Positions 9,139 through 64,000 are shown, counted from the first letter of the stretch. The stretch: DNA of 64,000 nucleotides from Dehalococcoidia bacterium (GCA_034421335.1 DAOUKL010000030.1:8753-72752); one strand, 5' to 3'. Notes: generated by a model not told the origin, from the sequence alone. Made by a program: numbers and translations.

Positions 9139-9204
9139 GGGCCTGCCTTTCTGTCGATCTGAGATATCCCGCGGGGCTCGACGTTCCCCGCGACTGCGAG
9201 GGGG

Positions 9205-9213: not shown

Positions 9214-9271
9214 CAGCCGCGCCCTGCCCTCTCCCCCGGGGAGAGTCCCGCGAGGGACCGATGGCCTCGCC

Positions 9272-17301: not shown

Positions 17302-18021
17302 GTGGACTGGGACGCTTTCCGTACGGCGGCGGCTGGGCTTTCCGTCGACCTCGACGACCGCCAGATGGCGCAATTCCAGCGCCTGCTCGCGCATCTGCAT
17401 GACGCCAATCGCGCTGCCGCCATCACCTCCGAGGCCGCGCTCCACGACGCCCTCCGCGTCCACTTCCTCGACGCCCTTGCCCTCGTCCCCATCATCCGCG
17501 AGGCGGGCCTCGACAACGGCCGCCTCGTCGACATCGGCTCGGGCGGAGGCTTCCCCGGCATCCCGCTCAAGATCGCCCTGCCCGACATCGACCTCACGCT
17601 CATCGACGCGGCGCGCAAGAAGACGGAGGCGCTCGAGCGCGCTGTCGACGCCCTTGGCGTCGAGGCCCGCGTGCTCCAGCTCCGCGCAGAGAACGCGGGG
17701 CGCGACCCCGCACTGCGCGAGGCATTCGACCTCGCGACGGCCCGCGCGATTGGCCCATGGCCCGTCGTGCTCGAGCTCGCGCTTCCGCTCTGCGCCCTTG
17801 GAGGACGCCTTCTCGGTCAGCGCGGCGCCGACGGCCCCGCTGAATCGGCGCGCTGCGAGCCCGTCGCCGCCGCGCTGGGCGGACGCGTGATGCGGGTCGA
17901 TGCGGTCGGCGCTCCGGCGGGGCTGGACGCCCGCCACGTCGTTATAGTCGAGAAAGTCGGACCGACGCCGGAGCGCTACCCGCGCAGGCAGGGGATACCG
18001 GCGAAGCGTCCGCTGGGCTAA
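17302..18021 (+). CDS. rsmG: 16S rRNA (guanine(527)-N7)-methyltransferase
   Basis: HFLDAL, VDIGSGGGFPGIPLKI, RAE, ARA, RRQGIPAKRPL; start trimmed to GTG 17302. Confidence 0.93.
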   Translation: MDWDAFRTAAAGLSVDLDDRQMAQFQRLLAHLHDANRAAAITSEAALHDALRVHFLDALALVPIIREAGLDNGRLVDIGSGGGFPGIPLKIALPDIDLTLIDAARKKTEALERAVDALGVEARVLQLRAENAGRDPALREAFDLATARAIGPWPVVLELALPLCALGGRLLGQRGADGPAESARCEPVAAALGGRVMRVDAVGAPAGLDARHVVIVEKVGPTPERYPRRQGIPAKRPLG

Positions 18022-18032
18022 CCTGTGTAGCC

Positions 18033-19064: not shown

Positions 19065-19828
19065 TAGACGGCGCATTCAGAGCCAGGTTGAAGGCGGGCG
19101 ACCCCCTCGTCGGCGTCTTCGTCAGCATCGAGTCGCCCACCACCGCCGAGTTGCTCGCTCTCGCGGGGGTCGACTACCTCATGATCGACGGCGAGCACAA
19201 CCCCATCGGTCCCGCCGAGGCGGTGGACATGGTGCGCGCCGCCGAGGCGCGCCGCGTTCCGGTGATGGCCCGCGTCGGCGAAAACACGCAGCAGGTCATC
19301 GCCAAGTACCTCGACGCCGGCGCCCTCGGGGTGATGACCCCCATGGTCAACAACGCCGCCGACGCACAACGCGTCGTTGACTCCGTCAAGTACCCGCCCG
19401 ACGGCAAGCGGGGGCTCGCGGGCGTCCGCGCCAACGACTTCGCGACCGGCCCCGATTACACGGCCCACGCCAACGACGCCACCATCGTGATGGTCCAGAT
19501 AGAGACGCTCGGCGGCATCAAGAACGCCGACGAGATCATCGCGACCGACGGCGTCGACGCCGTCTTCCTCGGCCCCTCCGACCTATCGGTCGCCTTGGGG
19601 GTCCCCGGCCAGGCCAAGCACCAAAGCGTGCTCGACTGCATCGAGCAGCTGACCGCAAAGATAACCAGGGCCGGCAAGACAGCCGGCACCATCGCCCGCG
19701 CCCCCGAAGACTACGCCTACTGGCGCGACCGCGGCGTGCAACTCTTCCTCACCGGCGCCAACGGTCTGCTGCTCGCCGCCGCCAAGTCGTACGTCGACGG
19801 CGCCCGGGCTGCTGAGGAGGGACGCTGA
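19061..19828 (+). CDS. HpcH/HpaI (GarL-like) class II aldolase
   Basis: IDGEHNP, LDAGALGVMTPMV, KYPPDGKRG, VQIET, FLGPSDLS. Confidence 0.9.
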   Translation: MIDGAFRARLKAGDPLVGVFVSIESPTTAELLALAGVDYLMIDGEHNPIGPAEAVDMVRAAEARRVPVMARVGENTQQVIAKYLDAGALGVMTPMVNNAADAQRVVDSVKYPPDGKRGLAGVRANDFATGPDYTAHANDATIVMVQIETLGGIKNADEIIATDGVDAVFLGPSDLSVALGVPGQAKHQSVLDCIEQLTAKITRAGKTAGTIARAPEDYAYWRDRGVQLFLTGANGLLLAAAKSYVDGARAAEEGR

Positions 19829-44069: not shown

Positions 44070-44126
44070 GTCCCACCCTCCCCGCAGGAGTGGGGAGGGT
44101 CGAGCGCGAAGCGCGAGGGGAGAGGT
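44070..44126. repeat. REP-like palindrome (CCCTCCCC...GGGGAGGG with a GCGCGAAGCGCG hairpin)
   Basis: Between convergent genes; similar motifs at 9221-9245, 27330-27355, 33086-33128 and 58764-58910. Confidence 0.6.
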
Positions 44127-49675: not shown

Positions 49676-50101
49676 GTGGAGACTGAACGCGTCCGGATCC
49701 GCGATTGCCAGGTGGAAGACATCGAGCAGGTGCTGTCGATCTGGGAGACTTCCAGCGCGGGCCACACGCCTACGGACAATGCCCAGGATGTGCGGCGGGC
49801 GATTGCGGCGCCCCAGCTCGAGTTCCTCGTCGCCGAAGTGGACGGCCGAGTGGTCGGAACCATCATGGGCGGCTACGACGGCTGGCGCGGGGCGATATCG
49901 AGGCTGGCCGTCGAAGAATCCTACCGGCGCAGGGGAATCGGTCGGGCGCTTCTGGCGGAAGTGGAGAAGCGTTTCGATGCCAACGGCGTGAGGGTGGTTG
50001 GCGCTCTGGTCGAGAAAGACCACCCCTGGGCCATGGATTTCTGGGACTCCACGGATTTCACGCTCGATGAGCGCTTCGTCCTGTTCAAGCGCGGCATGTG
50101 A
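49676..50101 (+). CDS. GNAT-family N-acetyltransferase
   Basis: LVAEVDGRVVGTIMGGYDGWRG, LAVEESYRRRGIGRALL. Confidence 0.9.
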   Translation: METERVRIRDCQVEDIEQVLSIWETSSAGHTPTDNAQDVRRAIAAPQLEFLVAEVDGRVVGTIMGGYDGWRGAISRLAVEESYRRRGIGRALLAEVEKRFDANGVRVVGALVEKDHPWAMDFWDSTDFTLDERFVLFKRGM

Positions 50102-50118: not shown

Positions 50119-50772
50119 CTACCCAACCCGCAGCACCCACACCCGGGCGGACGGGTGCGGCGCCGAGGTTTCCGCCTCGACCGTCATGCCCGACTCCCGC
50201 AGCACCCACTCCCAATCATCCAGCGTGTACTTGTTGTGGATGCGGAACTGTTCGAGCGCGCGCTCGTACCGCGTCGCCTCCGGCTCCCCCGGCTCCACGA
50301 GGCGTCGCGCGATGTACTCCCGCATCGGCTCCCGGAGCCAGTCGAAGAGCATCATGCGCCCGCCGGGCTTGAGCACGCGCGCCGCCTGCTCTCGCAGGAA
50401 CGTGAACGGGTCGTCAAACGTGTGAAGCACCGCGGTCATCGCCAGCAGGTCCACCGACCCTTCGTCGAACGGGAGGGGGTTGGCCTCGACGTCGAGCAGG
50501 CTCAGCGTGGGGACAGGCCCCGCGTAGTCGAGCGAGCGGGCGTTCTCGATCATCGCCTCGTTGGAGTCGACGCCGTATAGGTGGGCGTCCGGCAGGCGCG
50601 CGGAGAGGTCGCGCAGGAAGAGGCCCGGTCCGGGGCCGATGTCGGCGATGACCGGCGCCGGCGGGAGCGTGGGGGCGATGCGCTCGTCCCAGAACTCCCA
50701 GAACGCCGGGTTGAACCGCAACTCGTACCGTTCGAGCTGGCGGCGCAGCGCGCGGTCGTCGCGGGAGGTCAT
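50119..50772 (-). CDS. Class I SAM-dependent methyltransferase (paralog A)
   Basis: IADIGPGPG, YGVDSNEAMI, LPFDEGSVDL, RVLKPGG; start at ATG 50772. Confidence 0.88.
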   Translation of the reverse strand: MTSRDDRALRRQLERYELRFNPAFWEFWDERIAPTLPPAPVIADIGPGPGLFLRDLSARLPDAHLYGVDSNEAMIENARSLDYAGPVPTLSLLDVEANPLPFDEGSVDLLAMTAVLHTFDDPFTFLREQAARVLKPGGRMMLFDWLREPMREYIARRLVEPGEPEATRYERALEQFRIHNKYTLDDWEWVLRESGMTVEAETSAPHPSARVWVLRVG

Positions 50773-51407
50773 CGCGGCGCGCACGCGAGGGCGACGTGGC
50801 TGACGCGCGGATGCGCCTCGCCGGCGACGTCGAACCCGGCCTCCGCCAGCAGCCACCGCCACTCCTCCGCCGTGAAACGGTTGTGGTGCGGCTGCAGGCT
50901 CATCATTGCCGTAGGATCGTCGCCGAGCCCGCCCCGGTTCTCGATGTAGTCGGTGAGCGATTGCCGCTTCCAGTCGTACAGCAGGTACACGCCGCCGGGC
51001 CGGAGCATCCGGCGCGCCTCTGCGAACAGCACGAGCGGATTGTCGAGGAAACAGACAACGTTCGCAGAGATGCAGAGGTCGAACGACGCGTCCTCCACCG
51101 GGTACGGCGCCTCGTTCAGGTCGTGCTTCGTGAACGACGGTGCGCCCGTCGCGTAGTCGAGATCCCGGGCGTTCGCGAGCATCGCGTCGGACACGTCCAC
51201 ACCGCGCAGTGCGGCGTCCGGAAGCCTCGACGCCAGTTCCTGCAGCAGCAGCCCCGGCCCGCAACCCAGGTCGGCAATCGCAGGCGCCGCGCTGATGCGC
51301 GGGCGGACGGCGGACTCGAAGAACTCCCAGAACGCGGGCGGGTAGCGGCGTCCGGTGTTCGACGACATCCGCTCCACCATAGCGCTCTGGTTCCACCGGG
51401 TGGTCAT
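50769..51407 (-). CDS. Class I SAM-dependent methyltransferase (paralog B)
   Basis: IADLGCGPG, RGVDVSDAML, YPVEDASFDL, RMLRPGG; start at ATG 51407. Confidence 0.88.
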   Translation of the reverse strand: MTTRWNQSAMVERMSSNTGRRYPPAFWEFFESAVRPRISAAPAIADLGCGPGLLLQELASRLPDAALRGVDVSDAMLANARDLDYATGAPSFTKHDLNEAPYPVEDASFDLCISANVVCFLDNPLVLFAEARRMLRPGGVYLLYDWKRQSLTDYIENRGGLGDDPTAMMSLQPHHNRFTAEEWRWLLAEAGFDVAGEAHPRVSHVALACAPR

Positions 51408-51409
51408 CG

Positions 51410-51820
51410 CTACTCCGCCATGTTCACTGTGACGCCCTGCTCCTTGAAGATGTCGCTGGCCGCCTGCATGCCGTTGAACGCCGCCGGAAGCCCCGCGTAC
51501 GGAACGGCCTGCAGCAGCACCTCGGCTATCTCCTCCGGCGTGATGCCGAGGTGGAGCGCGTAGCGGGTGTAGGCGGCGACCTGCGGAGTCCGGCCCATCG
51601 CCGTACACATCCCCAGCACGATCATGCACCGCGTTCGAAGGTCGAGCCGCTCCCGCGACCATATCTCGCCGAAGTTGTACCCGATGACGAACTCCTCGAG
51701 CCCCGGGATCATGTCCAGCCCGGCGGCGTTCCCCGTGCTGCGCGACCCCTCCGACCCGCTGATCGCCTTGCGCACGGCCCTGCCCCGCGCCTTGCTCTCC
51801 TCTGCCTGATGCAGCGACAT
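51410..51820 (-). CDS. Carboxymuconolactone decarboxylase (CMD/AhpD-like) family protein
   Basis: FGEIWSRERLDLRTRCMIV, GITPEEIAEVLLQAVPYAGLPAA; start at ATG 51820. Confidence 0.88.
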   Translation of the reverse strand: MSLHQAEESKARGRAVRKAISGSEGSRSTGNAAGLDMIPGLEEFVIGYNFGEIWSRERLDLRTRCMIVLGMCTAMGRTPQVAAYTRYALHLGITPEEIAEVLLQAVPYAGLPAAFNGMQAASDIFKEQGVTVNMAE

Positions 51821-51935
51821 ACCGACCTCCTCGCACGCCACAAGTTTCCGGGGATGCTACACGACGGAAGGGCCGCGCCGCGCGCCCTTCTTGAAGGACC
51901 GACGACGGCGGGTGCGCGCCCCGGCGATTCGCCGC

Positions 51936-51941
51936 TATAAT
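51936..51941 (+). promoter_or_regulatory. TATAAT -10 element 6 nt before the selD ATG (leaderless mRNA)
   Basis: gccgcTATAATcccaccATG, with no Shine-Dalgarno. Confidence 0.65.
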
Positions 51942-51947
51942 CCCACC

Positions 51948-52997
51948 ATGCAACAGGAAGAGATTCGACTAACCAGTCTGGCCACCTGCGCGGGCTGAGC
52001 CGGCAAGTTCAGCCCCGAGGACCTCGGCGAGGTCCTGAGCCACCTCCCCCACGTGCGGCACGACGACCTGCTCGTGGGGTTCGACACGAGCGACGACGCC
52101 GCCGTCTACCGCCTGGCGGACGACCTCGCCGTCGTCCAGACGATCGATTTCTTCCCGCCCATCGTCGACGATCCGTACGACTTCGGCGCCATCGCCGCGG
52201 TGAACGCCCTGAGCGACGTGTACGCGATGGGAGGAACCCCCCTCCTGGCGCTCAACATCGTCTGCTTCCCCGAAGACCTGCCCAAGGAGATCCTCGGGAG
52301 CATCCTCCTCGGCGGCATGGACGTCGCCAGGGAGGCCGGCATCGTCATCGCCGGCGGCCACACCGTGAAGGACCGCGAGCCCAAGTACGGGCTCTCCGTC
52401 ACCGGCGTCGTACACCCCGACCACATCGTCACGAACGCCGCCGCCGAGGTCGGCGACGAACTGGTGCTGACGAAGCCGCTCGGCTCCGGCATCATCACGA
52501 CGGCGGCCAAGGCCGGCGTTGCTGACGACGCCACGATTGCCGGCGCTATCGCCACGATGCGGCAGCTCAACCGCGCGGGCGGCGAGGCGATGGTGGAGGT
52601 CGGCGTGAAGTCCGCGACCGACATCACTGGATTCGGACTCGTCGGCCACCTTCTCGGGATGCTGCGCGCCAGCGGGACCGCCGCCAAGCTGAACCTCGCC
52701 GACATCCCCCTGCTCCCCGGCGTCCGCGACATAGTCGAACGCGGCGTCGTCCCCGGAGGCACGGGCAACAACCTCGAGGCGTTCCGGAACGACGTCGCCT
52801 GGGGCCCCGGCATAACCGAGGAGGACCGGATCATCCTCTCCGACGCCCAGACGTCGGGCGGGCTGCTGATAGCGGCGCCGCCCGGATCGACGCAGACGCT
52901 GCTCGACGCCCTGGCCCGGCGCGGCGCCCCCGGCGTCGTGGTAGGGCGCGTCGTGGCCCGCGAGGACGTTGCCAACACCATCGAGGTCGCGTCGTAG
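51948..52997 (+). CDS. selD: Selenophosphate synthetase (selenide, water dikinase), Sec-containing (SenC of the selenoneine cluster)
   Basis: ATG 51948 reads MQQEEIRLTSLATCAG-U-AGKFSP with TGA 51996-51998 as codon 17, in frame with track ORF 52053-52997. Motifs DDAAVY, QTIDFF, NALSDVYAMGG, GGHT, TDITGFGL, DAQTSGGLL. Confidence 0.96.
52018..52036 (+). promoter_or_regulatory. Putative bacterial SECIS hairpin for the selD UGA
   Basis: 8-bp stem AGGACCTC/GAGGTCCT, loop GGC beginning 27 nt after the UGA. Confidence 0.65.
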
Positions 52998-53019
52998 CAG
53001 GCGCAGGTTCTCCCGCGGA

Positions 53020-54333
53020 ATGAGCGCTTTCGATCTGCCAGCCGCGCCTCCCCGCAGCGCGCGAGAACTCGCCGCCGACGCGTGGGACGCCGCGCAGACC
53101 GTCCTCGCGCTGACGGCGGACCTCGACTCCGCCCAGCAGCAGGGCCCCATGATCCCCATCGTAAACCCCGCCCTCTGGGAGGTCGGCCACGTCGGGTGGT
53201 TCTTCGAGAAGTGGACGCTGCGCAATCTGTACGAGGCCTCGGCGATGATCGACCGCGCCGACGAGCTGTACGACTCCGCCGCCATCGCCCATGACACCCG
53301 CTGGCGTCTCGCTTTCCCGACGTGGGAGCAGACCCGGGAGTTCGTGACTGAGGTCGTGCGCAACGCCACCGGGCCGATAGAGCGCCGCGAGCCGAACGCC
53401 CTGGAGCAGTACTTCCTGCAACTCGCTGCGTTCCACACCGATATGCATGCCGAAGCGTTTACCTACACCCGCCAGACGCTGGGCTTCAGCGAGGTGAGCC
53501 TTACGGCGCCCGTCGTGCTTCCCTCCCCCGAGCCCGGCTTCGAGCCGCACGACGTTGCCGTCCCCGGTGGAACGTTCATCCTCGGCCCGGTCGAGGGCGA
53601 ACTGCCGTTCGTGTTCGACAACGAGAAATGGGGCCACGAGACCCGCGTCGAGCCGTTCGCCATCGCCGCAACCGCCGTTACCAACGGCGAGTTCCTCCGG
53701 TTCGTCGAGGCCGGCGGCTACCGCGACCGCTCATGCTGGTCGGACGCCGGGTGGTGGTGGAAGCAGGCGGCCGGCGCGGAGCACCCCGTCTACTGGCGGC
53801 GCGAACGCGACGGCTCCTGGCTGGCGCGGCGCTACGACGCCTGGGGGCCCATCGACCCCCACGCGGCAATCATCCACGTCAACTGGCACGAGGCCAACGC
53901 CTACTGTGCGTGGGCGGGACGCCGTCTGCCGACCGAGGCGGAGTGGGAATTCGCGGCCTCCGGCGGCGCGAACGGCGCCCCCAAGCGGCGCTACCCCTGG
54001 GGCGACGAGCCTCCGTCCCCCGAACGCGCGAACCTCGACTTCCGCGGACGTGGAACGGTCGACGTGCGCGCGCTCCCGGCGGGCGACACTCCGCTCGGCT
54101 GCCGGCAGATGCTCGGCAACGTGTGGGAGTGGACGGCCACCGAGTTCGGCCCGTATCCCGGCTTCACCCCCGACCCCTACAAGGAGTACTCGCAGCCCGC
54201 GTTCAGCGGCCACAGGGTGCTGCGTGGCGGCGCCTGGAGCACCCGCTCCCGCCTCATCCGCAACACCTGGCGGAACTTCTACACCCCCGACCGGCGCGAC
54301 GTGATGTGCGGCTTCCGCACCTGCGCCGCCTGA
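53020..54333 (+). CDS. senA: Selenoneine synthase (EgtB-related non-heme iron enzyme, DinB-like plus FGE-sulfatase domains)
   Basis: IVNPALWEVGHVGWF, YDSAAIAHDTRW, FHTDMHAEAFTYTRQTL, RRLPTEAEWE, GNVWEW, RNFYTPDRRD; directly between selD and senB; start at ATG 53020. Confidence 0.9.
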   Translation: MSAFDLPAAPPRSARELAADAWDAAQTVLALTADLDSAQQQGPMIPIVNPALWEVGHVGWFFEKWTLRNLYEASAMIDRADELYDSAAIAHDTRWRLAFPTWEQTREFVTEVVRNATGPIERREPNALEQYFLQLAAFHTDMHAEAFTYTRQTLGFSEVSLTAPVVLPSPEPGFEPHDVAVPGGTFILGPVEGELPFVFDNEKWGHETRVEPFAIAATAVTNGEFLRFVEAGGYRDRSCWSDAGWWWKQAAGAEHPVYWRRERDGSWLARRYDAWGPIDPHAAIIHVNWHEANAYCAWAGRRLPTEAEWEFAASGGANGAPKRRYPWGDEPPSPERANLDFRGRGTVDVRALPAGDTPLGCRQMLGNVWEWTATEFGPYPGFTPDPYKEYSQPAFSGHRVLRGGAWSTRSRLIRNTWRNFYTPDRRDVMCGFRTCAA

Positions 54334-54349
54334 GCGGCGCGGAGCCGTC

Positions 54350-55306
54350 GTGTACATCGGACTGGCGACCCCCGCGCCGCCCGGAAGCCGCAGCGGCAAC
54401 CGCGTCACCGCCAGCCGGTGGGCCGGCTTCTTCCGCGAACTCGGCCACCGCGTCGCCGTCCGCCAGACCTACGACGGCGAGAACTTCGACCTCCTCGTCG
54501 CCGTCCACGCGCTGCGCAGCGCGCAGTCCGTGCGGGAGTTCAACGCCCGCCGTCCCGGCCGCCCCGTCATCGTCCTGCTCGCCGGCACGGACGTCTACGG
54601 CCCACTCTACGAGGAGGGCGGCGGCCCTGTGCTCGATGTGGCGGCGCGGGTCGTAACGCTGCAGCGCCTCGCCATCGAGGAATTGCGCCCCGAGCACCGG
54701 CCCAAGGTCCGCGCAATCGTCCAGTCCGCCCGGCCCACGCCCACGGCGGGGCCGTCGCCCAACGCCCGCACGTTCGACGTGAGCGTCGTCGGGCACTTGC
54801 GTCCGGTGAAAGACCCCTTCCTCGCCGCCGCCGCAACCCGACGCCTCCCGCGGGAGTCCCACATCCGCATCCTCCAACTCGGCGACGCGATGACGCCAGA
54901 GATGGCGCGCCATGCGAACGCGCTCGCCGCCGCTCATCCTCGCTACGAGTGGCGGCGGGGACTCCCGTCCTGGCGCGCCCGCCGCGTGCTCAAGAGGTCG
55001 CAGGTCATGGTGATATCGTCGATTTCCGAGGGCGGCGCCAACGTGGTATCCGAGGCGGTTGTCGACGGCGTGCCCGTGCTGGCGTCGCGGATGCCTGGCA
55101 ACGTGGGGCTGCTTGGCGACGACTATCCCGGCTACTTTCCCGTGGGCGATGGCGCGGAACTGCGGCGGCTCCTGCTCCGCTGCGAGCGTGAGCCGGCGTT
55201 CCTCGCGCAACTGCGCGACGCTGCAGCCCCGCTCCGCGCCACCCTCAACCCGGAGCGCGAGCGCGACGACTGGCGCTCGCTGCTGGAGGAGCTGGGGTTG
55301 GGGTAG
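54350..55306 (+). CDS. senB: Selenosugar synthase (GT-B glycosyltransferase, TIGR04348-like)
   Basis: GNRVTASRW, HALRS, GTDVY, VGHLRPVK, SEGGANVVSE, LASRMPGNVGLLGDDYPGYFPVGD match the recalled SenB pattern. Confidence 0.92.
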   Translation: MYIGLATPAPPGSRSGNRVTASRWAGFFRELGHRVAVRQTYDGENFDLLVAVHALRSAQSVREFNARRPGRPVIVLLAGTDVYGPLYEEGGGPVLDVAARVVTLQRLAIEELRPEHRPKVRAIVQSARPTPTAGPSPNARTFDVSVVGHLRPVKDPFLAAAATRRLPRESHIRILQLGDAMTPEMARHANALAAAHPRYEWRRGLPSWRARRVLKRSQVMVISSISEGGANVVSEAVVDGVPVLASRMPGNVGLLGDDYPGYFPVGDGAELRRLLLRCEREPAFLAQLRDAAAPLRATLNPERERDDWRSLLEELGLG

Positions 55307-55316
55307 GGGACGCCCG

Positions 55317-56195
55317 TTAACGCGCCAGCCGCCGCATGGCGGCTGCGAAGAGGTCGACCCCGATGACCAGCAGCAGGTACCACGCAAGCAGCAGTGTCAC
55401 CGTCGTGTAGTGGAAGTGGCTCATCGCGAGCCGGAACTCCATGCCGAGTCCGCCCGCAGCGACGAGCCCCACTACGATGGTCGTGCGGATGATCACCTCC
55501 CAGCGGTAGAACAGGTAGGTGACGAACCGGGGCAGCGCCATCGGAAGCACGGCGTAGACGATCACCTGGAACCATCCCGCCCCCGACGTACGGAGCGCGC
55601 GCGCAGGGCGCGTGTCGAGCCCCTCCACGACCTCCGCCGACAGCTTGCCGAGAATGCCGAAATTGTGCGCCGCCAGCGCAATCGCCCCCGGCAGGATCCC
55701 CGGCGAGAAGATGAACACCAGCAGCATCGCCCAGATGAGTTCCGGCACCGAGCGGCTGAGCACGTACGCGAGACGCACCGCGAAGAACCACGCCTGCCAC
55801 ACGGGGTTGCGGTACGGCGCCAGTTCGCCCGACATCACGTTCCGCGCCGCGAACATGAACGTGAGCAGCGCGCCGATCGCCGCAAGTCCCGCCGCCAGTA
55901 CGCTCATCGCCAGCGTGTCCAGCGCCAGCCCCCCGGCCTCCGCCCACGCCGAACCGTCGAGGTACGCCGGCGTCCGCTCGCTTCCCGACCCCGCAAGCTC
56001 GCCGAGGAACGACCACGCCCGCGACCCCGTCTCGCCGGAGAAGAACCCGTGGCTCGGCCAGCGCTGCGCGAACACGATGTACGTCCACGCGCTTGCCGCC
56101 AGCATCGCCGCCGCGATGACCGAACCCGACACGAACGACAGCCGTAGCCCCCGCGGCCCCGGCGCGGAGTAGGCGGGCGTCGGCGGCGCGCTCAC
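55317..56195 (-). CDS. PhnE/PtxC-type ABC transporter permease 2
   Basis: SRSVPELIWAMLL, GILGKLSAEVVE, YRWEVIIRTTIVVGLVAAGGLG; start GTG 56195 approximate. Confidence 0.88.
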   Translation of the reverse strand: MSAPPTPAYSAPGPRGLRLSFVSGSVIAAAMLAASAWTYIVFAQRWPSHGFFSGETGSRAWSFLGELAGSGSERTPAYLDGSAWAEAGGLALDTLAMSVLAAGLAAIGALLTFMFAARNVMSGELAPYRNPVWQAWFFAVRLAYVLSRSVPELIWAMLLVFIFSPGILPGAIALAAHNFGILGKLSAEVVEGLDTRPARALRTSGAGWFQVIVYAVLPMALPRFVTYLFYRWEVIIRTTIVVGLVAAGGLGMEFRLAMSHFHYTTVTLLLAWYLLLVIGVDLFAAAMRRLAR

Positions 56196-56965
56196 GGAAC
56201 GATTCTCCGCCGCACCTGCGAGCTCCACAGGTCCACGAGCACGACCAGTCCCACCAGCACCCACAGGAACGTCCATACGCGGGCGTACGCGAGGTCCTCG
56301 AGGGCGATCTGCACCTGGAACCCCAGCCCGCCGAGCCCGACCCACCCCAGCACCGCCGCCGACCGGATGCCGCACTCGAACCGGTAGAACGTGTACGAGA
56401 GCATGTCCGGCAGCGCCATCGGCAGCCTGCCGAACAGGAACACGCGCCATTCCGAGGCCCCGGAGCGCCGTAGAGCCTCCAGCGGCGCCTGCGGCACGTC
56501 TTGCAGCAGCTCCGAGTAGATGCGCCCAAGGATGCCCCCGTAAGGAATCCCCAGCGCCAGCACCGCCGCCATCGGCGACAACCCGATGGCCGCGACGAAC
56601 AACAGCGCCCACACCAGCTCGTGGATCGCCCGGAAGAACGCCAGCGCCCCCCGGGCCGTGCCGATCTGCGCCGCGGCGCCCCGGCGCGATTTCGCCAGCG
56701 CTCCCGACGCGATCACGCCCAGTGGAATGCCGATGCACAGCGCGACCGTCATGCCCGCCACTGCGTACGCCACGGTCTGCCACGCGGCGCCGGCGGCCTT
56801 CGCAAGAAGGTCCGGCGAGAGGTCAGGCCGGAAAAGTGCCCCGAGCGTGTCGACTACCGCGCTCAGGCCCCGGGGCTTGAACACCCCCTCGCTCCAATCG
56901 ACGCCCAGCAGGCTCAGTGCGAACGCGCCGATGAGGATGAGGGTTATGACGCGCCGGCCCTCCAT
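56192..56965 (-). CDS. PhnE/PtxC-type ABC transporter permease 1
   Basis: RAIHELVWALLF, GGILGRIYSELL, YRFECGIRSAAVLGWVGLGGLG; start at ATG 56965. Confidence 0.88.
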   Translation of the reverse strand: MEGRRVITLILIGAFALSLLGVDWSEGVFKPRGLSAVVDTLGALFRPDLSPDLLAKAAGAAWQTVAYAVAGMTVALCIGIPLGVIASGALAKSRRGAAAQIGTARGALAFFRAIHELVWALLFVAAIGLSPMAAVLALGIPYGGILGRIYSELLQDVPQAPLEALRRSGASEWRVFLFGRLPMALPDMLSYTFYRFECGIRSAAVLGWVGLGGLGFQVQIALEDLAYARVWTFLWVLVGLVVLVDLWSSQVRRRIVP

Positions 56966-57008
56966 CGTCCGCGGGCCTTCCCGGGGAGGCGTCGATGTCG
57001 CCGGCGGG

Positions 57009-57752
57009 TCAGACCTCACTCCGCAGGCCTTCGATTTCGTACAGCTCCGCCAGCATGCCGTCGTGCACGTCGCACGCCGGCGCGTCGAACTGCACCACTC
57101 CGTTGCGTAGACCGATGATGCGGTCGAAGCGTTCGCGCGCCAGATCCACGGAGTGCAGGCTCGCTATGAGCGTCTCGCCGCGCTCGTCGGTAACCGCCGT
57201 CAACAAGCCCAGCGCCTCCCGCGCGCGCGCCGGATCGAGCGACGCCACCGGCTCGTCCGCGAGCACCACGGTCGGGTTCTGCACGAGCACGCGCGCGATG
57301 GCGACGCGCTGCTGCTCGCCTCCGGAGAGGCGCCCGGCGCTCTGGTGCGCGAGTTGGGCGACGCCCACCCGGTCGAGCGCCTCCATGGCCACGCGGCGCT
57401 CCTGCGGCCACACGAGCGAGAGGAGCGACCGCGCCAGGCTCCAGTCGCCGAGCCTCCCCGCCAGCACGTTGTGCAGCGCCGAGAGGTTGGGCACGAGGTC
57501 GAACTGCTGCGCAATCATGCCGACGAGCCTGGCCAGCTCGCGCCCGGGCCGGAGCCGCGCGAGGTCGCGCCCGCAAAGCTCGACCACGCCGGTCGTCGGG
57601 GCGATGGCGCCCGCCATGAGCCGCAGCAGCGTCGTCTTCCCGGCGCCGCTCGGCCCTATCACCGCCACCCGTTCGCCGCGCTCAATGGCGAAATCCAACG
57701 GCGCCAGCACGATCGTTTGACCGTAGCGCATCGATGCGCCGTCGAACCGCAC
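57009..57752 (-). CDS. PhnC-type ABC transporter ATP-binding protein
   Basis: GPSGAGKTT, LSGGEQQRVAIAR, LADEPVASLDP; start uncertain (GTG 57752 or up to 57830). Confidence 0.92.
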   Translation of the reverse strand: MRFDGASMRYGQTIVLAPLDFAIERGERVAVIGPSGAGKTTLLRLMAGAIAPTTGVVELCGRDLARLRPGRELARLVGMIAQQFDLVPNLSALHNVLAGRLGDWSLARSLLSLVWPQERRVAMEALDRVGVAQLAHQSAGRLSGGEQQRVAIARVLVQNPTVVLADEPVASLDPARAREALGLLTAVTDERGETLIASLHSVDLARERFDRIIGLRNGVVQFDAPACDVHDGMLAELYEIEGLRSEV

Positions 57753-57792
57753 GGCCGGCGCCGCCGCCGGCGCCTCCGATGGATAGAGGGCG

Positions 57793-58668
57793 CTACTCGA
57801 TAATGCCGAATTCGCGTGCGGCATCCTCAATCGCCTGGTACCTGTCGTTGCTCGTGCGAACGAACCTTTGGCCGTTGAATGACTCGGCGATCTCCTGCGC
57901 CCGCCCGCCCCGGTCGACGTCGACAGTGAGCAGCGCGTCGGTGATGTTGTCCAACGCGCCCTCGCCGAACTCGTCGTCGATCGAGGGGTGCGCCACCCAG
58001 TGGTAGTTGACGTATGCCGGCGTTCGGTAGAACACGTCGACCTTGGACGTGTCGACGTCGCCGGCCGCGACGCGCCTCTCCCACACGGCCTCGCTGAGCG
58101 CGCCGGCGTCGAACGAGCCGGCCTCCACGAGCTTCCACGTGCGGTCGTGCGAGCCGCTGAAGCTGATGGAGCTGAGCTCCGTCTCCGTGTCGACTCCCGC
58201 CTGGCTCAGGTAGTAGCGGGGCATCAGGTGCCCGGACGTCGAGCTTTCCGAGCCGAACGTCACCGTCTTGCCGCGCAGGTCTTCGAGGCTGTCGATGCCC
58301 GAACCGGGCGCCGAGACGAAGACGGAATGGAACTCGCCGTCGCGCGGGCGGTGCGCGATGGCGTTGGCCTCGGGAACAGCGATGCGCGCCTGCACGCCCG
58401 TGACGGCGCCGTACCACACCAGGTGGATGTCGCCCTGCTTGAACGACGTGACGACGGCGGCGTAGTCGGCCTGCGGCACGTAACGCACGCTGTAGCCGGT
58501 CTCTTCCGCAAGGTGCTCGGCGAGCCTGTTGAAGCGCTCTTCCAGAACGCTGACGTCCTGGTCGGGGATGCCCGCGATGAGCAGCTCCGGCGTGTCGCCG
58601 CCGTCCGAGCACGCGGCGGCGATTCCCAGCAGCGCGACGCTGGCGAGCGCCGTCAATATCTTCCTCAT
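57793..58668 (-). CDS. PhnD-family ABC substrate-binding lipoprotein, putative selenate-transporter subfamily
   Basis: Lipobox AAAC; IPDQD, DYAAVVTSF..GDIHLVWYGAVTGVQAR, FHSVFV, TFGSESSTSGHLMPRYYL, FSGSHD. Confidence 0.8.
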   Translation of the reverse strand: MRKILTALASVALLGIAAACSDGGDTPELLIAGIPDQDVSVLEERFNRLAEHLAEETGYSVRYVPQADYAAVVTSFKQGDIHLVWYGAVTGVQARIAVPEANAIAHRPRDGEFHSVFVSAPGSGIDSLEDLRGKTVTFGSESSTSGHLMPRYYLSQAGVDTETELSSISFSGSHDRTWKLVEAGSFDAGALSEAVWERRVAAGDVDTSKVDVFYRTPAYVNYHWVAHPSIDDEFGEGALDNITDALLTVDVDRGGRAQEIAESFNGQRFVRTSNDRYQAIEDAAREFGIIE

Positions 58669-58734
58669 GTTGCTCCTACCGATGAGAGGGATAGGACGCC
58701 ATGATACTGTCGAGCGACGCCAACCGGCGGTTTC

Positions 58735-58751
58735 GATTACAATTCTGCATC
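58735..58751. promoter_or_regulatory. Candidate LysR box (GA-T-N11-A-TC) in the ABC/LysR divergent region
   Basis: GATtacaattctgcATC, an AT-rich patch in GC-rich DNA, about 30 nt upstream of a TATCAT -10 on the minus strand (58701-58706). Confidence 0.4.
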
Positions 58752-58763
58752 ACAGCGCCTCAG

Positions 58764-58910
58764 TGCCCCTCCCCACGGGGGGAGGGGCAGGGGAGAGGGA
58801 GGGCTGGCCCCCTCCCCCCGAGGGGGAGAGCCAGGGAGAGGGCCGCGCGCGAAGCGCACCCCCACTCTCCCCCCGAGGGGGAGATGCCCCGAAGGGGCAG
58901 AGAGGGCGGT
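58764..58910. repeat. Composite REP-like cluster
   Basis: Several CCCCT..GGGG hairpins; CCCCCGAGGGGGAGATGCCCCGAAGGGGC is shared with 61966-62008 and is similar to 33086-33128. Confidence 0.75.
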
Positions 58911-58950
58911 TCCGTCAGGGCGCCGAATGAGAAGGGGAGAGGGCGGCACA

Positions 58951-59865
58951 ATGGACATCAGCGCGCTTCGCAGCTTCGTAGCCGTCTGCCGCGCCGGAAG
59001 CTTCCGGGAGGCGGCGCGCGAGCGCCACGTCAGCCAGCCCGGCGTCAGCCGCCACATCAAGCGGCTCGAGGCCGAACTCGGCGTGGCCCTCCTCGCGCGC
59101 AGCCAGCGCCGGGCGACTCCGACAGCCGCCGGAAGCCGCCTCTTCGCCCACGCCGTCGACGCCATCGCCGCGCACGACCGCATCATCGAGTCCCTCGCGC
59201 GCGAGGACGCCGCCGTCCGGGGCGAGCTCCTCATCGCCGCCAGCACCACGCCGGGTGAGTACCTCCTCCCCCGCCTCCTCTCCGACTTCACCGAAATCTA
59301 CCCTGACGTCCGGCCCAACGTCGTCGTCACCGACTCCGCCGCCGCCATCGCCAGCGTCGAAAGCGGCGCCTCCACCCTCGGCTTCGTCGGGATGCGGGCG
59401 CCGCACTCGGACCTGGCGTCGACGCTTTTCACGGAGGATGAACTGGTCCTCGCCGTACCCGGACGCCACCCCTTCGCGGGCAGGGCGTGGATCGACGTAT
59501 CGGAGCTGCGGGGACTGCCCTTCATCGAGCGCGAGCCGGGGTCGGGCGCGTGGGCGGGCTTCCGGCGCGCGCTCGAGCGAGCAGGCTCGCCGGAGCCCGG
59601 CTACCGGCCCGTCATGGTCGTCAATTCGACGCACGCGACGCTCGCAGCCGTGAACAGCGGTTTCGGCTTCAGCGTGGTGTCGTCGCTTGCGGTGCACGAG
59701 CACGAGTTCGAACAGGTCTACCCCGCGCGCCTCACCGGGCTCGACACGCGCCGCAGCCTCTACATGATCAAGCGCCCTTCCTGCACTGCGCCCACCGCCC
59801 TCGCCTTCGGCGACTGGGTGCTCGCACGGCTCGCGCCGGAGCGCGAGACCACCCGAGAGGAGTAG
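58951..59865 (+). CDS. LysR-family transcriptional regulator (CysL / selenium-associated type)
   Basis: LRSFVAVCRAGSFREAARERHVSQPGVSRHIKRLE, IAASTTPGEYLLPRLL; start at ATG 58951. Confidence 0.9.
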   Translation: MDISALRSFVAVCRAGSFREAARERHVSQPGVSRHIKRLEAELGVALLARSQRRATPTAAGSRLFAHAVDAIAAHDRIIESLAREDAAVRGELLIAASTTPGEYLLPRLLSDFTEIYPDVRPNVVVTDSAAAIASVESGASTLGFVGMRAPHSDLASTLFTEDELVLAVPGRHPFAGRAWIDVSELRGLPFIEREPGSGAWAGFRRALERAGSPEPGYRPVMVVNSTHATLAAVNSGFGFSVVSSLAVHEHEFEQVYPARLTGLDTRRSLYMIKRPSCTAPTALAFGDWVLARLAPERETTREE

Positions 59866-59872
59866 TCCCCAA

Positions 59873-60850
59873 ATGCCCCCTGCCTTCACCGTTGCCGTCC
59901 ACATCTCCACCGACGACGAGCGCGCCTCGGCGGTTGACGAGATCGTCCGAGGGCTCACCTCGTCGCCCAAGACGCTCAGCCCCAAGTTCCTCTATCACGA
60001 GGCCGGCGCCGGCCTGTTCGACGAGATAACGCAGCTCGAGGAGTACTACCCCACCCGTATCGAACGGTCGCTCCTCGAGTGTTTCGGCGCCGAGATCGTC
60101 GGCGACGTTCAGCCGCGGGAAATCGTCGAGCTTGGGCCCGGCAACAGCGCCAAGACCGGGCTGCTGCTACGACCGGCCCTTCAGGCGGAAACGCTGCGGC
60201 GGTACATCCCGTTCGACATCAGCGAGTCGGCGGTGCGTGAGGGCGCGGAGGCGCTCGCCGCCGCACACCCCGAACTCCCCGAGATCGCCGCCGTTATCGG
60301 CGACTTCGGGCGGCATCTCCCCTCGGTCCCGCCAGCGGAGGGGCCGCGCCTCGTCGCCTTCCTCGGCTCCACCATCGGCAACCTGCATCCGGACGAGCAG
60401 AGGGAATTCCTCGCCGACGTACGCGGGATGATGCCGGCGTCCGGCGGAGCCCTCCTCATCGGCGCCGACCTCGTAAAGGATGTGAGCGTCATCGAGGCGG
60501 CCTACAACGACGCCAGGGGCGTCACCGCGCAGTTCAACCTCAACTCCCTCAACGCCGTGAACGATCTGCTCGGCGCTCGCATCGACGTCTCCCTCTTCCG
60601 GCATTGCGCCTTCTTCAACGCCGGGCGCTCCCGCATCGAGATGCACCTCGAGGCCCTCGCCGACGTTGCGATTCCGCTGCCGGCGGGCGGCGAGGCGGTC
60701 GTCCGCGCCGGAGAAACAATCTGGACGGAGAGTTCGTACAAGTTCACGAAGGACGGCTTCGCCGCAACGCTCGCGGACGCTGGGTTCGGCAGCGCCCGCT
60801 GGTTCACCGACCCCGACGACCTCTTCGCGCTCGTCCTCGCCAAACCGTAA
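59873..60850 (+). CDS. egtD: L-histidine N(alpha)-trimethyltransferase (hercynine synthase)
   Basis: PKTLSPKFLY, LFDEITQLEEYYPTR, VELGPG, FLGSTIGNL, AYNDARGVTAQFNLN, RIEMHL, TESSYKFT. Confidence 0.93.
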   Translation: MPPAFTVAVHISTDDERASAVDEIVRGLTSSPKTLSPKFLYHEAGAGLFDEITQLEEYYPTRIERSLLECFGAEIVGDVQPREIVELGPGNSAKTGLLLRPALQAETLRRYIPFDISESAVREGAEALAAAHPELPEIAAVIGDFGRHLPSVPPAEGPRLVAFLGSTIGNLHPDEQREFLADVRGMMPASGGALLIGADLVKDVSVIEAAYNDARGVTAQFNLNSLNAVNDLLGARIDVSLFRHCAFFNAGRSRIEMHLEALADVAIPLPAGGEAVVRAGETIWTESSYKFTKDGFAATLADAGFGSARWFTDPDDLFALVLAKP

Positions 60851-60914
60851 CCCCTCCGGCCCCCTCCCTCGAAGTCGGGGGAGGGCTGGGGTGAGGGTTT
60901 GCGCGCGCAAGCGC
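60851..60914. repeat. REP-like palindrome (inverted copy of the 2380-2430 element)
   Basis: Reverse complement gcgcttgcgcgcgcaaaccctcaccccagccctcccccgacttcgagggagg aligns with 2380-2430. Confidence 0.7.
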
Positions 60915-60930
60915 GCATCCGCCGGCGTTC

Positions 60931-61890
60931 TCACCCGCGCGCCTTGAGCCTCCGGTAGGCCGCGGCTACCGCCGCCCACGCCTCGCGCGGACGCTCCGAA
61001 CGGATGGCGGTCATTTGCTCGCCCGCGCCGTAGCACCACGTCGAGATGGTTGCGACGCCGGCGTCCGCCATCGCCTCGACGGCCTGGGCTATCTCCCCCT
61101 CCCGTCCGGCCGGGAGCCCGAACGCTTGGAGCCACGCCATCGGCTCCTGGCCGCTCTCGCGGCAGGCGGCGACGACGCGCGCGCAGGCGTCGGCGACGTA
61201 GGGCGCGACGGGCTGGCCGTGCGCTCGCCACAGCGGTGAGACAGCGACGATGTCGGCAGCCCGCGCCGCGACCAGCTGCTGTTCTAGGACGTCCGCGCCC
61301 TGCTCCGGCGAGCCCGGCAGCACGCCCACCACGGCGCGCATGCCTCGCGCCCGCGCGTCGGCGCAGGCCTCGCTGATGAGGCGGGCGATGCTCCATTGCG
61401 GGAACGTCTGTCCGGCCTCGCGCTCGCGCAGGTACGCCGACATTGCCTGCTCGCAGGCGCCGCAGGCGCAGGCCTCGTCAGCCCCCGGTGGCATCGGATC
61501 GTCGAAGAACGCCGCGTCGGCCCCCGCCGCAGCCGCAGCCTCGACCCATCCGCCGAGCAGCTCCCGGAAGGCGGGCGCGTTGGGGCAGGCCACGGGGACG
61601 CGCTCGCCATTGGGCCGCGTTCGCCACGACTCGGGATGCCGCACGAGGAAGTCGCTGAACGCCTCACCGGCAAACAGGCCGCCCAGCCCCCAGCAGTCGG
61701 CCCACGCCTCCAGCCCCGCCTCGTGCGTGGCCGCGATGAGCCCGGCGCTCTCGCCGCTGTGGAACGCGAGATCGTGCTCGCTCAGCGTATGGACCACGAA
61801 ATCGCAGCCCGCATCGACGACCTCCGGCAGGTCGCGCTCGGCGAAGTGCCGGACGAACCGGTTGCCGAGATACGTGACGCCTAGCTTCAT
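60931..61890 (-). CDS. Putative TIM-barrel glycoside-hydrolase-like protein
   Basis: DCWGLGGLFAGE, HPESW, ACPNAPAF, FFDDP, CACGAC, WLQAF pattern; start at ATG 61890; family from recall only. Confidence 0.55.
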   Translation of the reverse strand: MKLGVTYLGNRFVRHFAERDLPEVVDAGCDFVVHTLSEHDLAFHSGESAGLIAATHEAGLEAWADCWGLGGLFAGEAFSDFLVRHPESWRTRPNGERVPVACPNAPAFRELLGGWVEAAAAAGADAAFFDDPMPPGADEACACGACEQAMSAYLREREAGQTFPQWSIARLISEACADARARGMRAVVGVLPGSPEQGADVLEQQLVAARAADIVAVSPLWRAHGQPVAPYVADACARVVAACRESGQEPMAWLQAFGLPAGREGEIAQAVEAMADAGVATISTWCYGAGEQMTAIRSERPREAWAAVAAAYRRLKARG

Positions 61891-61902
61891 GCGCGCAGCA
61901 TA

Positions 61903-62062
61903 CCCCCTCCCCCGAAGACGGGGGGAGGGCTCCGTCGCCCGCGAAGGCGGGAATCCATCCCCATGTCTCCCCCCGAGGGGGAGATGCCCCGAAGGGGCGG
62001 AGAGGGCGCATCCGTCGCCTGCGAAAGCAGGAATCTCGCCCCCTCCGTCGTTCGGGAGACGG
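61903..62062. repeat. Composite REP cluster (BIME-like)
   Basis: GTCGCCCGCGAAGGCGGGAATCCA (61934) and GTCGCCTGCGAAAGCAGGAATC (62014) flank the element shared with 58866-58907. Confidence 0.8.
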
Positions 62063-63343
62063 CTAGGGTGAAGAGGAGACCCCCTGCCTCTTGAGCGGCG
62101 CGAAGAGGAAGATGAGCGCGCCGGGGGCTGCAACCACGCCGCCGAGCCAGAAGATACTTTCGTACATTCCGGTAAGCCTGACTACCGCGCCCATCACGAG
62201 AGCGCCGACCGTCGCGCCGCTGAGGCTGCTGAGGAACATGATGCCGACCGTCGAGCCCTGCAGGCCGGGCGGCGAGGCGTCCATGGCGGTGGCGTTGACT
62301 ACGTCCTGGCTCGACCAGAGGAAGAGTCCAATGACCGCCAGGGTGAGGGTGATGACGAGGAACTCCGCGTGAAGGGCGACGGATGTGAACGGCACAGTGA
62401 AGTCCAACACGAGGTTGGTTTCCCCGGCGGCGGCGATGACGAGCAGGCCCGCGCCTATGACGAGCATGGCGGCGGCGATGGGGAGCCGTCGTCCGACACG
62501 GTCCGAGAAGTAGCCGAAGACCGGCCCGAAGACGACGCCGAGGAGCGTGAGCAGTCCGACGTGGAAACCGACGCCGAAGCTGTCCATGTCGAGGTCCTGT
62601 GCTAGGTAGACCGGCATGAAGCTGATGAGCCCGAAGTGCGAGAAGGAGCGGGTGAAATTGGCGTAGGCGAGGCTGACATAGACCGGGTACCGGAGCAGGC
62701 GGATGGGGTCGGTCAGCCGGGGGAGTTGGGCCTGCGCTTCGGGTTGCCTTCTGGGCGCTCCGGACAGGAGCCAGAACATGGCGATGGTGATGACGACGGC
62801 GGGGAAGAAGCTGAGGAGGGTGTAGCGCCGCCAGTCGTCGGCGAGCCAGAAGGCGAGGATGAAACCCACAGCGAGCGGCCCGAGCGCCTCGCCTGCGCCG
62901 GAGCCGGAGCCGTGATAGGCGATGGCCATGCCCTTGCGGTCCGGGAAACGCGTGCTGAGCATGGAGATGGCCGGCGGGTGCCAGAACGAGGCGGCGAGGC
63001 CTCCGAGCGAAGCAAGCGCGATGACTGGCCAGATCCAGGGCGCGAGGCCGGAGAGCATCATGAAGAGCGCGGCGAAGAAGAACGAGAGCGGGAGTATCCA
63101 GTGCCAGTAGCCGCTGAGCCGGTCTGACACGTAGCCGACGAAGAAGTTGGGGAAGCCGCCGCCGAACTGCTTGATGATGGCGATGACGGTGACCCCGGTG
63201 GCCGTCAGTTCGTACTCCTCGACGATCAGCGGGAGGAACACCGCAAACGCGGCGATGTACCAGTGCTTAAGCCCATGTCCGACGGCGATGGTAGCGATGT
63301 ACGTCGGCCCAGCCGTTCGGAAGGAGAAGGACGCCGCCGCCAT
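62063..63343 (-). CDS. MFS transporter (FSR-like)
   Basis: About 12 TM helices, GYVSDRL and GYFSDRVGRR loop motifs, FWHPPA. Confidence 0.88.
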   Translation of the reverse strand: MAAASFSFRTAGPTYIATIAVGHGLKHWYIAAFAVFLPLIVEEYELTATGVTVIAIIKQFGGGFPNFFVGYVSDRLSGYWHWILPLSFFFAALFMMLSGLAPWIWPVIALASLGGLAASFWHPPAISMLSTRFPDRKGMAIAYHGSGSGAGEALGPLAVGFILAFWLADDWRRYTLLSFFPAVVITIAMFWLLSGAPRRQPEAQAQLPRLTDPIRLLRYPVYVSLAYANFTRSFSHFGLISFMPVYLAQDLDMDSFGVGFHVGLLTLLGVVFGPVFGYFSDRVGRRLPIAAAMLVIGAGLLVIAAAGETNLVLDFTVPFTSVALHAEFLVITLTLAVIGLFLWSSQDVVNATAMDASPPGLQGSTVGIMFLSSLSGATVGALVMGAVVRLTGMYESIFWLGGVVAAPGALIFLFAPLKRQGVSSSP

Positions 63344-64000
63344 CAGGCCGCTCCCTCGCCGCAGAGCGCCACCGCCGCGCGCAAGTCCAGCAGCCCCTGG
63401 TGGATGGCTTTCCCCACGATCGCCCCCTCCAGCCCCGGAAGCTCCGCAAGTCGCCGAACGTGCTCGATCTCCGCGACCCCGCCCGACGCGATGAGCGCCG
63501 CGCCCACGCCCGCAGCGCGGGCGAGCATGCGCTCGACCGCCGCATAGTTCGGCTCGGTCAGCGCCCCGTCCCGCCCGATATCGGTGTAGATGAACCGGCG
63601 CACCCCCAGCGCCGCCATAGCGTCCAGCAGCTCCCCCGCGTCCGCCTCCCCGCTCACCGTCCAGCCGTCGACCTTCGCCACGCCGTCCCGCGCGTCGATG
63701 CCGATGGCGATGCGCTCCGGCCCGTGCCGCTCGACGACGGCGCGGACGAGTTGCGGGTCGCGCACGGCGGCGGTGCCGAGCACTACGCGCTCCACGCCGT
63801 CGTCGAACGCGGCGTCGATGTCGTCGAGCGTGCGCAGGCCGCCGCCGAGTTGGATGGGAACGCCGACGGCGCCCGCGATGGCGCGTACCTGCTCCGCCTG
63901 CGTGCGCCGCCCCTCCCGCGCACCGTCGAGATCGACTACGTGGATGCGCTCCGCGCCCTCGGCCTCGAAGCGGCGCGCCGCCGCCGCCGGGTCGCGCCCG
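63343..64000 (-). CDS. hisA: ProFAR isomerase HisA, partial (5' end outside the window)
   Basis: Frame continues to the edge: DPAAAARRFEAEGAERIHVVDLDGA, QLGGGLR, VVLGT, TDIGRDG, ASGG, GKAI. Confidence 0.95.
   Translation of the reverse strand, partial: GRDPAAAARRFEAEGAERIHVVDLDGAREGRRTQAEQVRAIAGAVGVPIQLGGGLRTLDDIDAAFDDGVERVVLGTAAVRDPQLVRAVVERHGPERIAIGIDARDGVAKVDGWTVSGEADAGELLDAMAALGVRRFIYTDIGRDGALTEPNYAAVERMLARAAGVGAALIASGGVAEIEHVRRLAELPGLEGAIVGKAIHQGLLDLRAAVALCGEGAA

Follow-up and report, generated by a model that had tools for sequence, protein, structure and literature searches.

Does a block in which genes for selenoneine biosynthesis stand beside methyltransferase genes encode one pathway, or do two separate gene groups share a border? 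The question is raised by a stretch of 64,000 nucleotides from a Dehalococcoidia bacterium (GCA_034421335.1, DAOUKL010000030.1:8753-72752), here called the window. An earlier interpretation made from the DNA alone, without knowledge of its origin (the sequence-only reading), had described positions 50119-60850 as a selenoneine locus with its own selenium importer, regulator, hercynine supply and tailoring genes, possibly making a modified (e.g. Se-methylated) product. The analysis reported here indicates that this 10.7-kb block most probably consists of two independent modules abutting in one lineage, namely a predicted selenoneine island (51931-61890) and a CMD-methyltransferase-methyltransferase operon (50119-51820).

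Genes were called by third-position GC content and then checked against hidden Markov models (HMMs) of NCBIfam and Pfam, in a window of about 69% G+C where long spurious open reading frames (ORFs) are plentiful. All twelve genes listed by the sequence-only reading were recovered in 50119-60850 with the same coordinates, order and orientation. The minus-strand genes for two methyltransferases (MT1 and MT2) and a CMD-family protein are divergent from plus-strand selD-senA-senB, in which selD carries a selenocysteine (Sec) codon; these three converge with a PhnCDE-type ATP-binding cassette (ABC) importer, which in turn is divergent from a LysR-family gene and egtD. Three details were corrected: the ABC importer has two permeases, the LysR gene more likely starts at 58951, and the conserved unit runs one gene beyond the range first given, to 61890. 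In the HMM searches that had been proposed, SenA, SenB (TIGR04348), the TIGR04553 binding protein and EgtD all exceeded the curated NCBIfam cut-offs, as did SelD. The features, counted from the first letter of the window, are the following.

50119-50772, minus strand: MT1, class I S-adenosylmethionine (SAM) methyltransferase (Pfam Methyltransf_11/25)
50769-51407, minus strand: MT2, class I SAM methyltransferase (Pfam Methyltransf_11/25)
51410-51820, minus strand: CMD-family protein (Pfam CMD)
51948-52997, plus strand: selD/senC, predicted selenophosphate synthetase, a selenoprotein (TIGR00476, 392.5 bits, cut-off 125)
52018-52036, plus strand: hairpin resembling a selenocysteine insertion sequence (SECIS) element (RNA fold)
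53020-54333, plus strand: senA, predicted selenoneine synthase, a non-haem iron selenoxide synthase of the hercynine-accepting type (NF041186, 471.2 bits, cut-off 420)
54350-55306, plus strand: senB, predicted selenosugar synthase (Se-glycosyltransferase; TIGR04348, 355.3 bits, cut-off 300)
55317-56195 and 56192-57019, minus strand: two PhnE-like ABC permeases (TIGR01097, 168 and 197 bits, below the cut-off of 216.7; Pfam BPD_transp_1)
57009-57824, minus strand: PhnC-like ABC ATPase (TIGR02315, 230 bits, below the cut-off of 266; Pfam ABC_tran)
57793-58668, minus strand: periplasmic binding lipoprotein of a putative selenate/selenite importer (TIGR04553, 307.6 bits, cut-off 250)
58735-58751, divergent promoter region: candidate LysR-type box GAT-N11-ATC (conserved in six genomes)
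58951 (or 58927)-59865, plus strand: LysR-family regulator, selenium-metabolism type (NF040786, 228.9 bits, below the cut-off of 250)
59873-60850, plus strand: egtD, predicted histidine N-alpha-trimethyltransferase, which makes hercynine (TIGR03438, 316.4 bits, cut-off 290.9; Pfam Methyltransf_33, PF10017, 319 bits)
60931-61890, minus strand: 319-amino-acid (aa) TIM-barrel gene of no recognised family (conservation and structure model)

The CMD, MT2 and MT1 genes overlap or nearly abut and are thus taken as one operon, which diverges from selD across about 110-130 bp; MT1 and MT2 are 38% identical to each other. If all twelve genes formed one system, the methyltransferases and CMD would tailor selenoneine, for example by Se-methylation. 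Such a reading could appeal to the divergent arrangement with selD, to the recurrence of this adjacency in two related loci (L081 and L088; loci are cited by running labels), and to the NCBIfam family NF041537, ArsM/AhpD-domain fusion selenoproteins that show pairings of methyltransferase and AhpD/CMD domains in selenium or arsenic contexts, matched here weakly at 33-35 bits. It is nevertheless very unlikely, since the two gene groups part company in related genomes. The MT1 family comprises 58 clusters, mostly from Chloroflexota. In L084, L085, L086 and L087 (MT1 54-76% identical), CMD-MT1 lies towards leuS, sen genes are absent, and SbcC or a metallophosphatase occupies the opposite flank. 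A metagenome scan with MT2 recovered the complete order CMD-MT2-MT1-hyp126-leuS in L093 and L094, with no sen gene in the 7.5 kb upstream in L093. At five of these sites (L084-L086, L093 and L094) the CMD orthologues are 84-92% and LeuRS 82-83% identical to those of the window, and sen is absent. In L082 and L083 (72-73%) the methyltransferase stands alone in unrelated contexts. Conversely, the sen islands L001, L002 and L100 have neither a methyltransferase nor a CMD gene within 10 kb. The CMD and methyltransferase genes therefore fail to co-occur with senAB, being sen-free in six loci and missing from three sen islands. For the methyltransferase genes this is the very outcome that the sequence-only reading had named as refuting it, and its proposal of tailoring genes was abandoned on synteny in 13 related loci.

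The stretch from CMD to MT1 is itself variable. MT2 is missing in L081 and L084-L087. L088 (MT1 96%) has the layout of the window with an additional restriction-endonuclease-like gene separating CMD from MT2 (8407-9369, REase-ARP/PDDEXK_13), and L081 (MT1 84%) reads TIM-barrel gene, egtD-LysR, importer, senB-senA-selD and CMD-MT1, with one methyltransferase only. The surroundings of CMD-MT1 are likewise a variable spot: genes for an SNF2 helicase and BrxC/BrxD-like proteins (BREX-type defence) lie between MT1 and leuS in L081 (10665-15814), and a GNAT gene (window 49676-50101) is present in the window, L088 and L089 only. As regards their own families, MT1 and MT2 are generic class I methyltransferases that stay under every curated cut-off. 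Neither resembles an enzyme of ArsM or OvsM/OvoA type at any curated threshold: their best NCBIfam match is the DVU_1556 family (54 and 50 bits against 155), the ArsM models give 28-35 bits against cut-offs of 240-575, and their matches in the PDB are generic class I enzymes with no OvoA among them. Nothing found ties the operon to selenoneine. The CMD-methyltransferase operon belongs stably to the surroundings of leuS, and the sen island is a separate unit that stands beside it in one sublineage only; a lineage-specific functional link to selenoneine would still be conceivable.

The selenoneine island, on the other hand, is kept as a block. A scan for SenA with one genome per species gave 80 loci, in which the best matches, at 81% identity, were L001 and L002, both complete Dehalococcoidia chromosomes among metagenome-assembled genomes (MAGs); with relatives of this kind, the origin in Chloroflexota guessed from the DNA is supported. 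Positions 51931-61895 are collinear with both at 70-79% DNA identity, the match setting in 17 bp upstream of the selD start codon, so that the block excludes the methyltransferases and CMD and includes the gene beyond egtD. The same unit is kept in L081 and L088, while the L100 version lacks egtD and selD, and in Dehalococcoidia genomes the unit of about 10 kb is found again in two or more further chromosomal settings. The arrangement lies far beyond chance. Uptake, regulation, hercynine supply and biosynthesis are hence physically linked, as had been proposed, and the importer, LysR and egtD genes do accompany senAB in related Dehalococcoidia. When all window proteins were compared by tblastn with the 80 loci, matches were found for SenB in 70, SelD in 24, the ABC ATPase in 22, EgtD in 18, the binding protein in 11 and LysR in four; MT1/MT2 matched in one, at 26-30% identity, and CMD in none. 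Protein searches were clustered at 90% identity, which hides members, and for co-occurrence at the genome level only positive overlaps are informative and absences were left out of account. The island borders show no integrase, tRNA or direct repeats as signs of a mobile element; the only repeats there are short, GC-rich hairpins. Repeats of this type (CTCCCCC...GGGGGAG) are intergenic and occur at 58769-58884, 61907-61984, 2409-2430 and 44078-44098. In L100, a gene at 17959-19350 for a pyridine-nucleotide disulfide oxidoreductase (Pyr_redox_2 and Pyr_redox_dim, 463 aa), a candidate diselenide or disulfide reductase, is divergent from senA, and selD is not adjacent.

The window SenA belongs to the non-haem iron sulfoxide/selenoxide synthases (NHISS), a family that includes EgtB, OvoA, SenA and OvsA. 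In alignments, the window protein has the three-histidine triad (His57, His139 and His143), the catalytic Tyr387 and a hercynine-binding motif of Tyr390, Asn419 and Phe420, equivalent to Y366, N395 and F396 of SenA. In a phmmer search of the PDB, OvsA ranked first (8UX5, 305 bits; 8U41, 295 bits), above EgtB (250 bits) and the SenA of Variovorax paradoxus (243 bits), the top match being an engineered OvsA-YNF variant. This ranking, together with the extra methyltransferase that ovs clusters contain, could be taken to mean that the enzyme is of OvsA type and that the locus makes ovoselenol (N-pi-methyl-5-selenohistidine), one of the neighbouring methyltransferases acting as OvsM. The choice between histidine-C5 and hercynine-C2 chemistry is decided by M401/Q430/A431 in OvsA versus Y366/N395/F396 in SenA (PMC11030361). 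At these three switch residues (M401Y/Q430N/A431F) the window protein is in the SenA state, its aligned residues being Tyr, Asn and Phe in place of the histidine-binding Met401/Gln430/Ala431. Moreover, the cut-off of the SenA model NF041186 is exceeded, the island includes egtD, a gene missing from most ovs organisms, and neither MT1 nor MT2 matches an OvoA-type methyltransferase. Ovoselenol is thus a highly unlikely product, and this reading was rejected because the motif is Y/N/F, egtD is present and no methyltransferase resembles OvsM. As the window SenA is nearer by score to the solved OvsA of Halomonas and yet has the SenA motif, annotation by the best PDB hit would mislabel it.

A sulfur product of ergothioneine type, with the selenium annotation misleading, would be another reading. 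SenA also matches the EgtB model, at 308 bits against a cut-off of 360, and V. paradoxus SenA accepts thioglucose, although very poorly. Against this, in an alignment with EgtB (4X8B), the window residues His91 and Tyr421 stand in place of Arg87 and Asp416. This thiol-binding pair of EgtB is replaced by His and by Phe or Tyr in all SenA proteins (Kayrouz et al. 2022, bioRxiv 10.1101/2022.04.13.486033). In addition, selD and senB adjoin senA, and an importer and a regulator of selenium type are linked to selD and senB, which makes a sulfur product extremely unlikely. In SenB, residues Asn17, Thr20, Lys154, Glu227 and Glu235 match N20, T23, K158, E231 and E239 of the V. paradoxus enzyme, where the corresponding residues were found to be important by mutagenesis; Glu227 lies within an EGGANV motif (E231 in EGGAHV in V. 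paradoxus). Given these scores and active-site residues, the assignment of the core pathway is solid at the level of sequence, and selD, senA and senB can be regarded as genuine selenoneine biosynthesis genes by HMM score and catalytic motif.

The selD gene has an in-frame TGA at 51996-51998, within the motif TCAG-U-AGK and at the position equivalent to Cys17. The N-terminal loop of the protein carries Sec17 and Lys20 as expected of SelD/SenC, in keeping with its score over the TIGR00476 threshold. Among the sen-linked selD genes sampled (L001-L088), the catalytic position is Sec (TGA) in 11 and Cys in 16. The Sec type is found in all Dehalococcoidia islands and also in Rubrobacter, Gemmatimonadaceae and a few other MAGs, and the Cys type comes mostly from MAGs labelled proteobacterial. 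A hairpin, GAGGACCUC-GGC-GAGGUCCUC, lies at 52018-52036, 19 nucleotides (nt) past the UGA. All 11 Sec-type genes have a hairpin 12-20 nt after the UGA with a G-containing loop of 3-4 nt, and the stem sequences vary between lineages. This conservation fits a SECIS element, though the hairpin overlaps conserved coding sequence and its z-score is only -1.97. Upstream, a CTATAAT box 7-8 nt before the ATG (window 51933-51947) is found at the same position in L088, L081, L001 and L002, and its closeness to the start codon suggests a leaderless selD transcript; similar boxes also occur in the Rubrobacter loci L013 and L037. A GAT-N11-ATC motif over this -10 box is not kept in L081, L001 and L002 and was treated as chance.

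The importer permeases are 81-87% identical to those of L001, L002 and L081. The family to which the binding protein belongs, TIGR04553, is named 'putative selenate ABC transporter substrate-binding protein' in NCBIfam, and from that name the cargo would be selenate or selenite. The LysR gene likely starts at 58951 (MDISALRSF), judging by the alignment with relatives, and egtD begins 8 bp past its end. In the divergent promoter region, the GAT-N11-ATC box, which contains T-N11-A, sits at the same position in six genomes and is a plausible LysR box; L100 has ATAAC-N5-GTTAT there. In the window and L088, but not in L001, L002 and L081, GC-rich hairpin repeats amounting to about 190 bp have been inserted between the GAT-N11-ATC box and the start of LysR.

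Taken together, the island would support the following route. The PhnCDE-type system with its TIGR04553 binding protein would import a selenium oxyanion, which general cell chemistry would reduce to selenide. The Sec-containing SelD would produce selenophosphate, from which SenB is expected to form a selenosugar with a UDP-sugar, while EgtD would trimethylate histidine to hercynine. SenA, with Fe(II) and O2, would then couple the selenosugar to C2 of hercynine, and the resulting selenoxide would lose the sugar to give selenoneine. The LysR protein, co-transcribed with egtD and divergent from the importer operon, probably controls both through the T-N11-A box. As SelD needs selenocysteine, the full-length protein would be made only in cells that have both selenium and the Sec machinery at hand.

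Several points weigh against this picture of a selenoneine island next to an unrelated operon. The closest PDB protein to the window SenA by overall sequence is OvsA and not the V. paradoxus SenA, and CMD and methyltransferase genes do stand beside selD in three related genomes (the window, L081 and L088). The LysR protein scores 228.9 bits against the NF040786 cut-off of 250, and this is its best family by about 100 bits, the next one reaching 126 bits in NCBIfam. Decoding of Sec is assumed: tRNA-Sec, selA and selB were not found in the 64-kb window by Rfam, ARAGORN and NCBIfam scans. Over the whole window, Rfam and ARAGORN gave only a tRNA-Gly, and at the locus itself they matched no curated RNA family. 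Ten large ORFs from other parts of the window, scanned with NCBIfam, proved to be housekeeping genes only, with no selA or selB. The importer substrate is putative, and the functions given to the island rest on homology; those of the enzymes are established for characterised homologues and are assigned here from HMM scores and active-site residues.

The gene that closes the conserved island deserves separate attention. It encodes a protein of 319 aa (60931-61890, minus strand), is convergent with egtD, and has no significant sequence match in Pfam, NCBIfam or the PDB; its 63 homologues are all named hypothetical. It adjoins the sen island in five of the five Dehalococcoidia islands with enough flank (the window, L081, L001, L002 and L100), with identity down to 52%, and the homologue at that value, in L100, stays beside LysR where egtD and selD are absent from the island. 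Homologues at 31-44% identity sit in unrelated contexts, and the gene is missing from the non-Dehalococcoidia sen loci among the 80 compared by tblastn. In L090, a SenA (cluster P0150, 58% identical) and a homologue of the 319-aa protein (P0113, 44%) apparently share one contig of 1,713,670 bp; P0113 has no sen gene within 10 kb, so the two can be unlinked inside one genome.

An AlphaFold model of the protein, built from an alignment of 33 sequences, is of high confidence, with a predicted local distance difference test score (pLDDT) of 92.4 and a predicted template modelling score (pTM) of 0.91. The model is a (beta/alpha)8 barrel with invariant residues at the C-terminal strand ends, and in Foldseek it resembles glycosidases of glycoside hydrolase (GH) families GH35 and GH164, with TM-scores of 0.65-0.68 at 10-14% identity. 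A profile search gave only a weak match to the GH42 beta-galactosidase Bga (6LVW, E=0.11), which aligns the N-terminus and an invariant C102...C141-x-C143-xx-C146 cluster; this C...CxCxxC cluster presumably corresponds to the Cys4 zinc site of GH42. There is no Pfam match to GH42 or GH35 and the catalytic Glu pair is not evident, which argues against a GH42 beta-galactosidase. In the alignment and model, the usual acid/base Asn-Glu appears as Asp130-Asp131 and no invariant Glu is found at the nucleophile strand. The protein is therefore called a glycosidase-like barrel, on the strength of its modelled fold, and is probably not a canonical glycosidase. It is a tentative and rather doubtful proposition that the protein serves selenoneine biosynthesis in Dehalococcoidia as an accessory enzyme not recognised before. 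The idea of a role on the sugar side is prompted by the fact that the selenoxide step is followed by release of 2-acetamidoglucal, and one may speculate that the protein hydrates or recycles 2-acetamidoglucal after SenA has acted, or that it acts on the selenosugar or hercynyl-selenosugar intermediate. Should its function indeed belong to the pathway, a new step or a salvage reaction would have to be added.

Apart from these modules the window carries ordinary core genes, for RseP, CimA, RNase Y, RibBA, PurL, PyrH, RecA, IspG and LeuRS. Directly beyond the island lie a major facilitator superfamily (MFS) transporter (62063-63343, minus strand) and hisA (63343-63795, minus strand), which are not kept beside the island in L001 and L002; their adjacency is probably coincidental.

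How much of this is new? The linkage of importer, LysR, egtD and sen genes claimed by the sequence-only reading stands, and its novelty does not, since the parts are already on record. Many of 827 sen clusters are near a putative selenate transporter, and a small subset has a co-localised egtD (Kayrouz et al. 2022, bioRxiv 10.1101/2022.04.13.486033). The association of the LysR_Se regulator family with selenium is established, and experiments later confirmed it as HrsM (PMC9312934). A Chloroflexota protein of 82% identity already bears the name 'selenoneine synthase SenA' at NCBI. With its self-contained layout the island neatly illustrates a known system and is not a new kind; the conserved GH42-like TIM-barrel gene is possibly its only new element. 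Since the genes proposed for tailoring are unrelated neighbours, the locus gives no pointer to a selenium metabolite of a new kind. What it does offer is an extension of the documented selenoneine pathway to Dehalococcoidia, where uptake, regulation, hercynine supply and C-Se chemistry travel as a compact island with a selenoprotein SenC. The island also lends itself to heterologous expression as a unit and to probing the cargo of the TIGR04553 importer and the effector of LysR.

Compared with the senABC clusters of V. paradoxus and Amycolatopsis palatopharyngis, the window shares the adjacent selD/senC, senA and senB, the His/Tyr substitutions and Y/N/F hercynine motif of SenA, and the N/T/K/E residues of SenB. 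It differs in its Dehalococcoidia (Chloroflexota) host, in a SenC of Sec instead of Cys type, in a SenA about 50% identical to the proteobacterial enzymes, and in the importer, LysR, egtD and TIM-barrel gene kept as one block of about 10 kb. With the ovs cluster for ovoselenol (OvsA, OvsM, SenB and SenC; PMC11030361) it has in common the senB/senC selenosugar cassette, and OvsA is the closest solved structure by score; it departs from that cluster in the SenA-type Y/N/F in place of M/Q/A, in egtD and in the lack of an OvsM-like methyltransferase. The barrel protein resembles the catalytic domain of GH42/clan GH-A beta-galactosidases in its (beta/alpha)8 fold and its weak profile match to 6LVW, but it is single-domain, 10-14% identical and without an evident canonical Glu pair. 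With respect to LysR_Se/HrsM and the TIGR04553 transporter (PMC9312934), the binding protein passes its cut-off and NF040786 is the clear best match of the regulator, although at 229 against 250 bits; the divergent layout of regulator and transporter is typical of LysR-type regulators.

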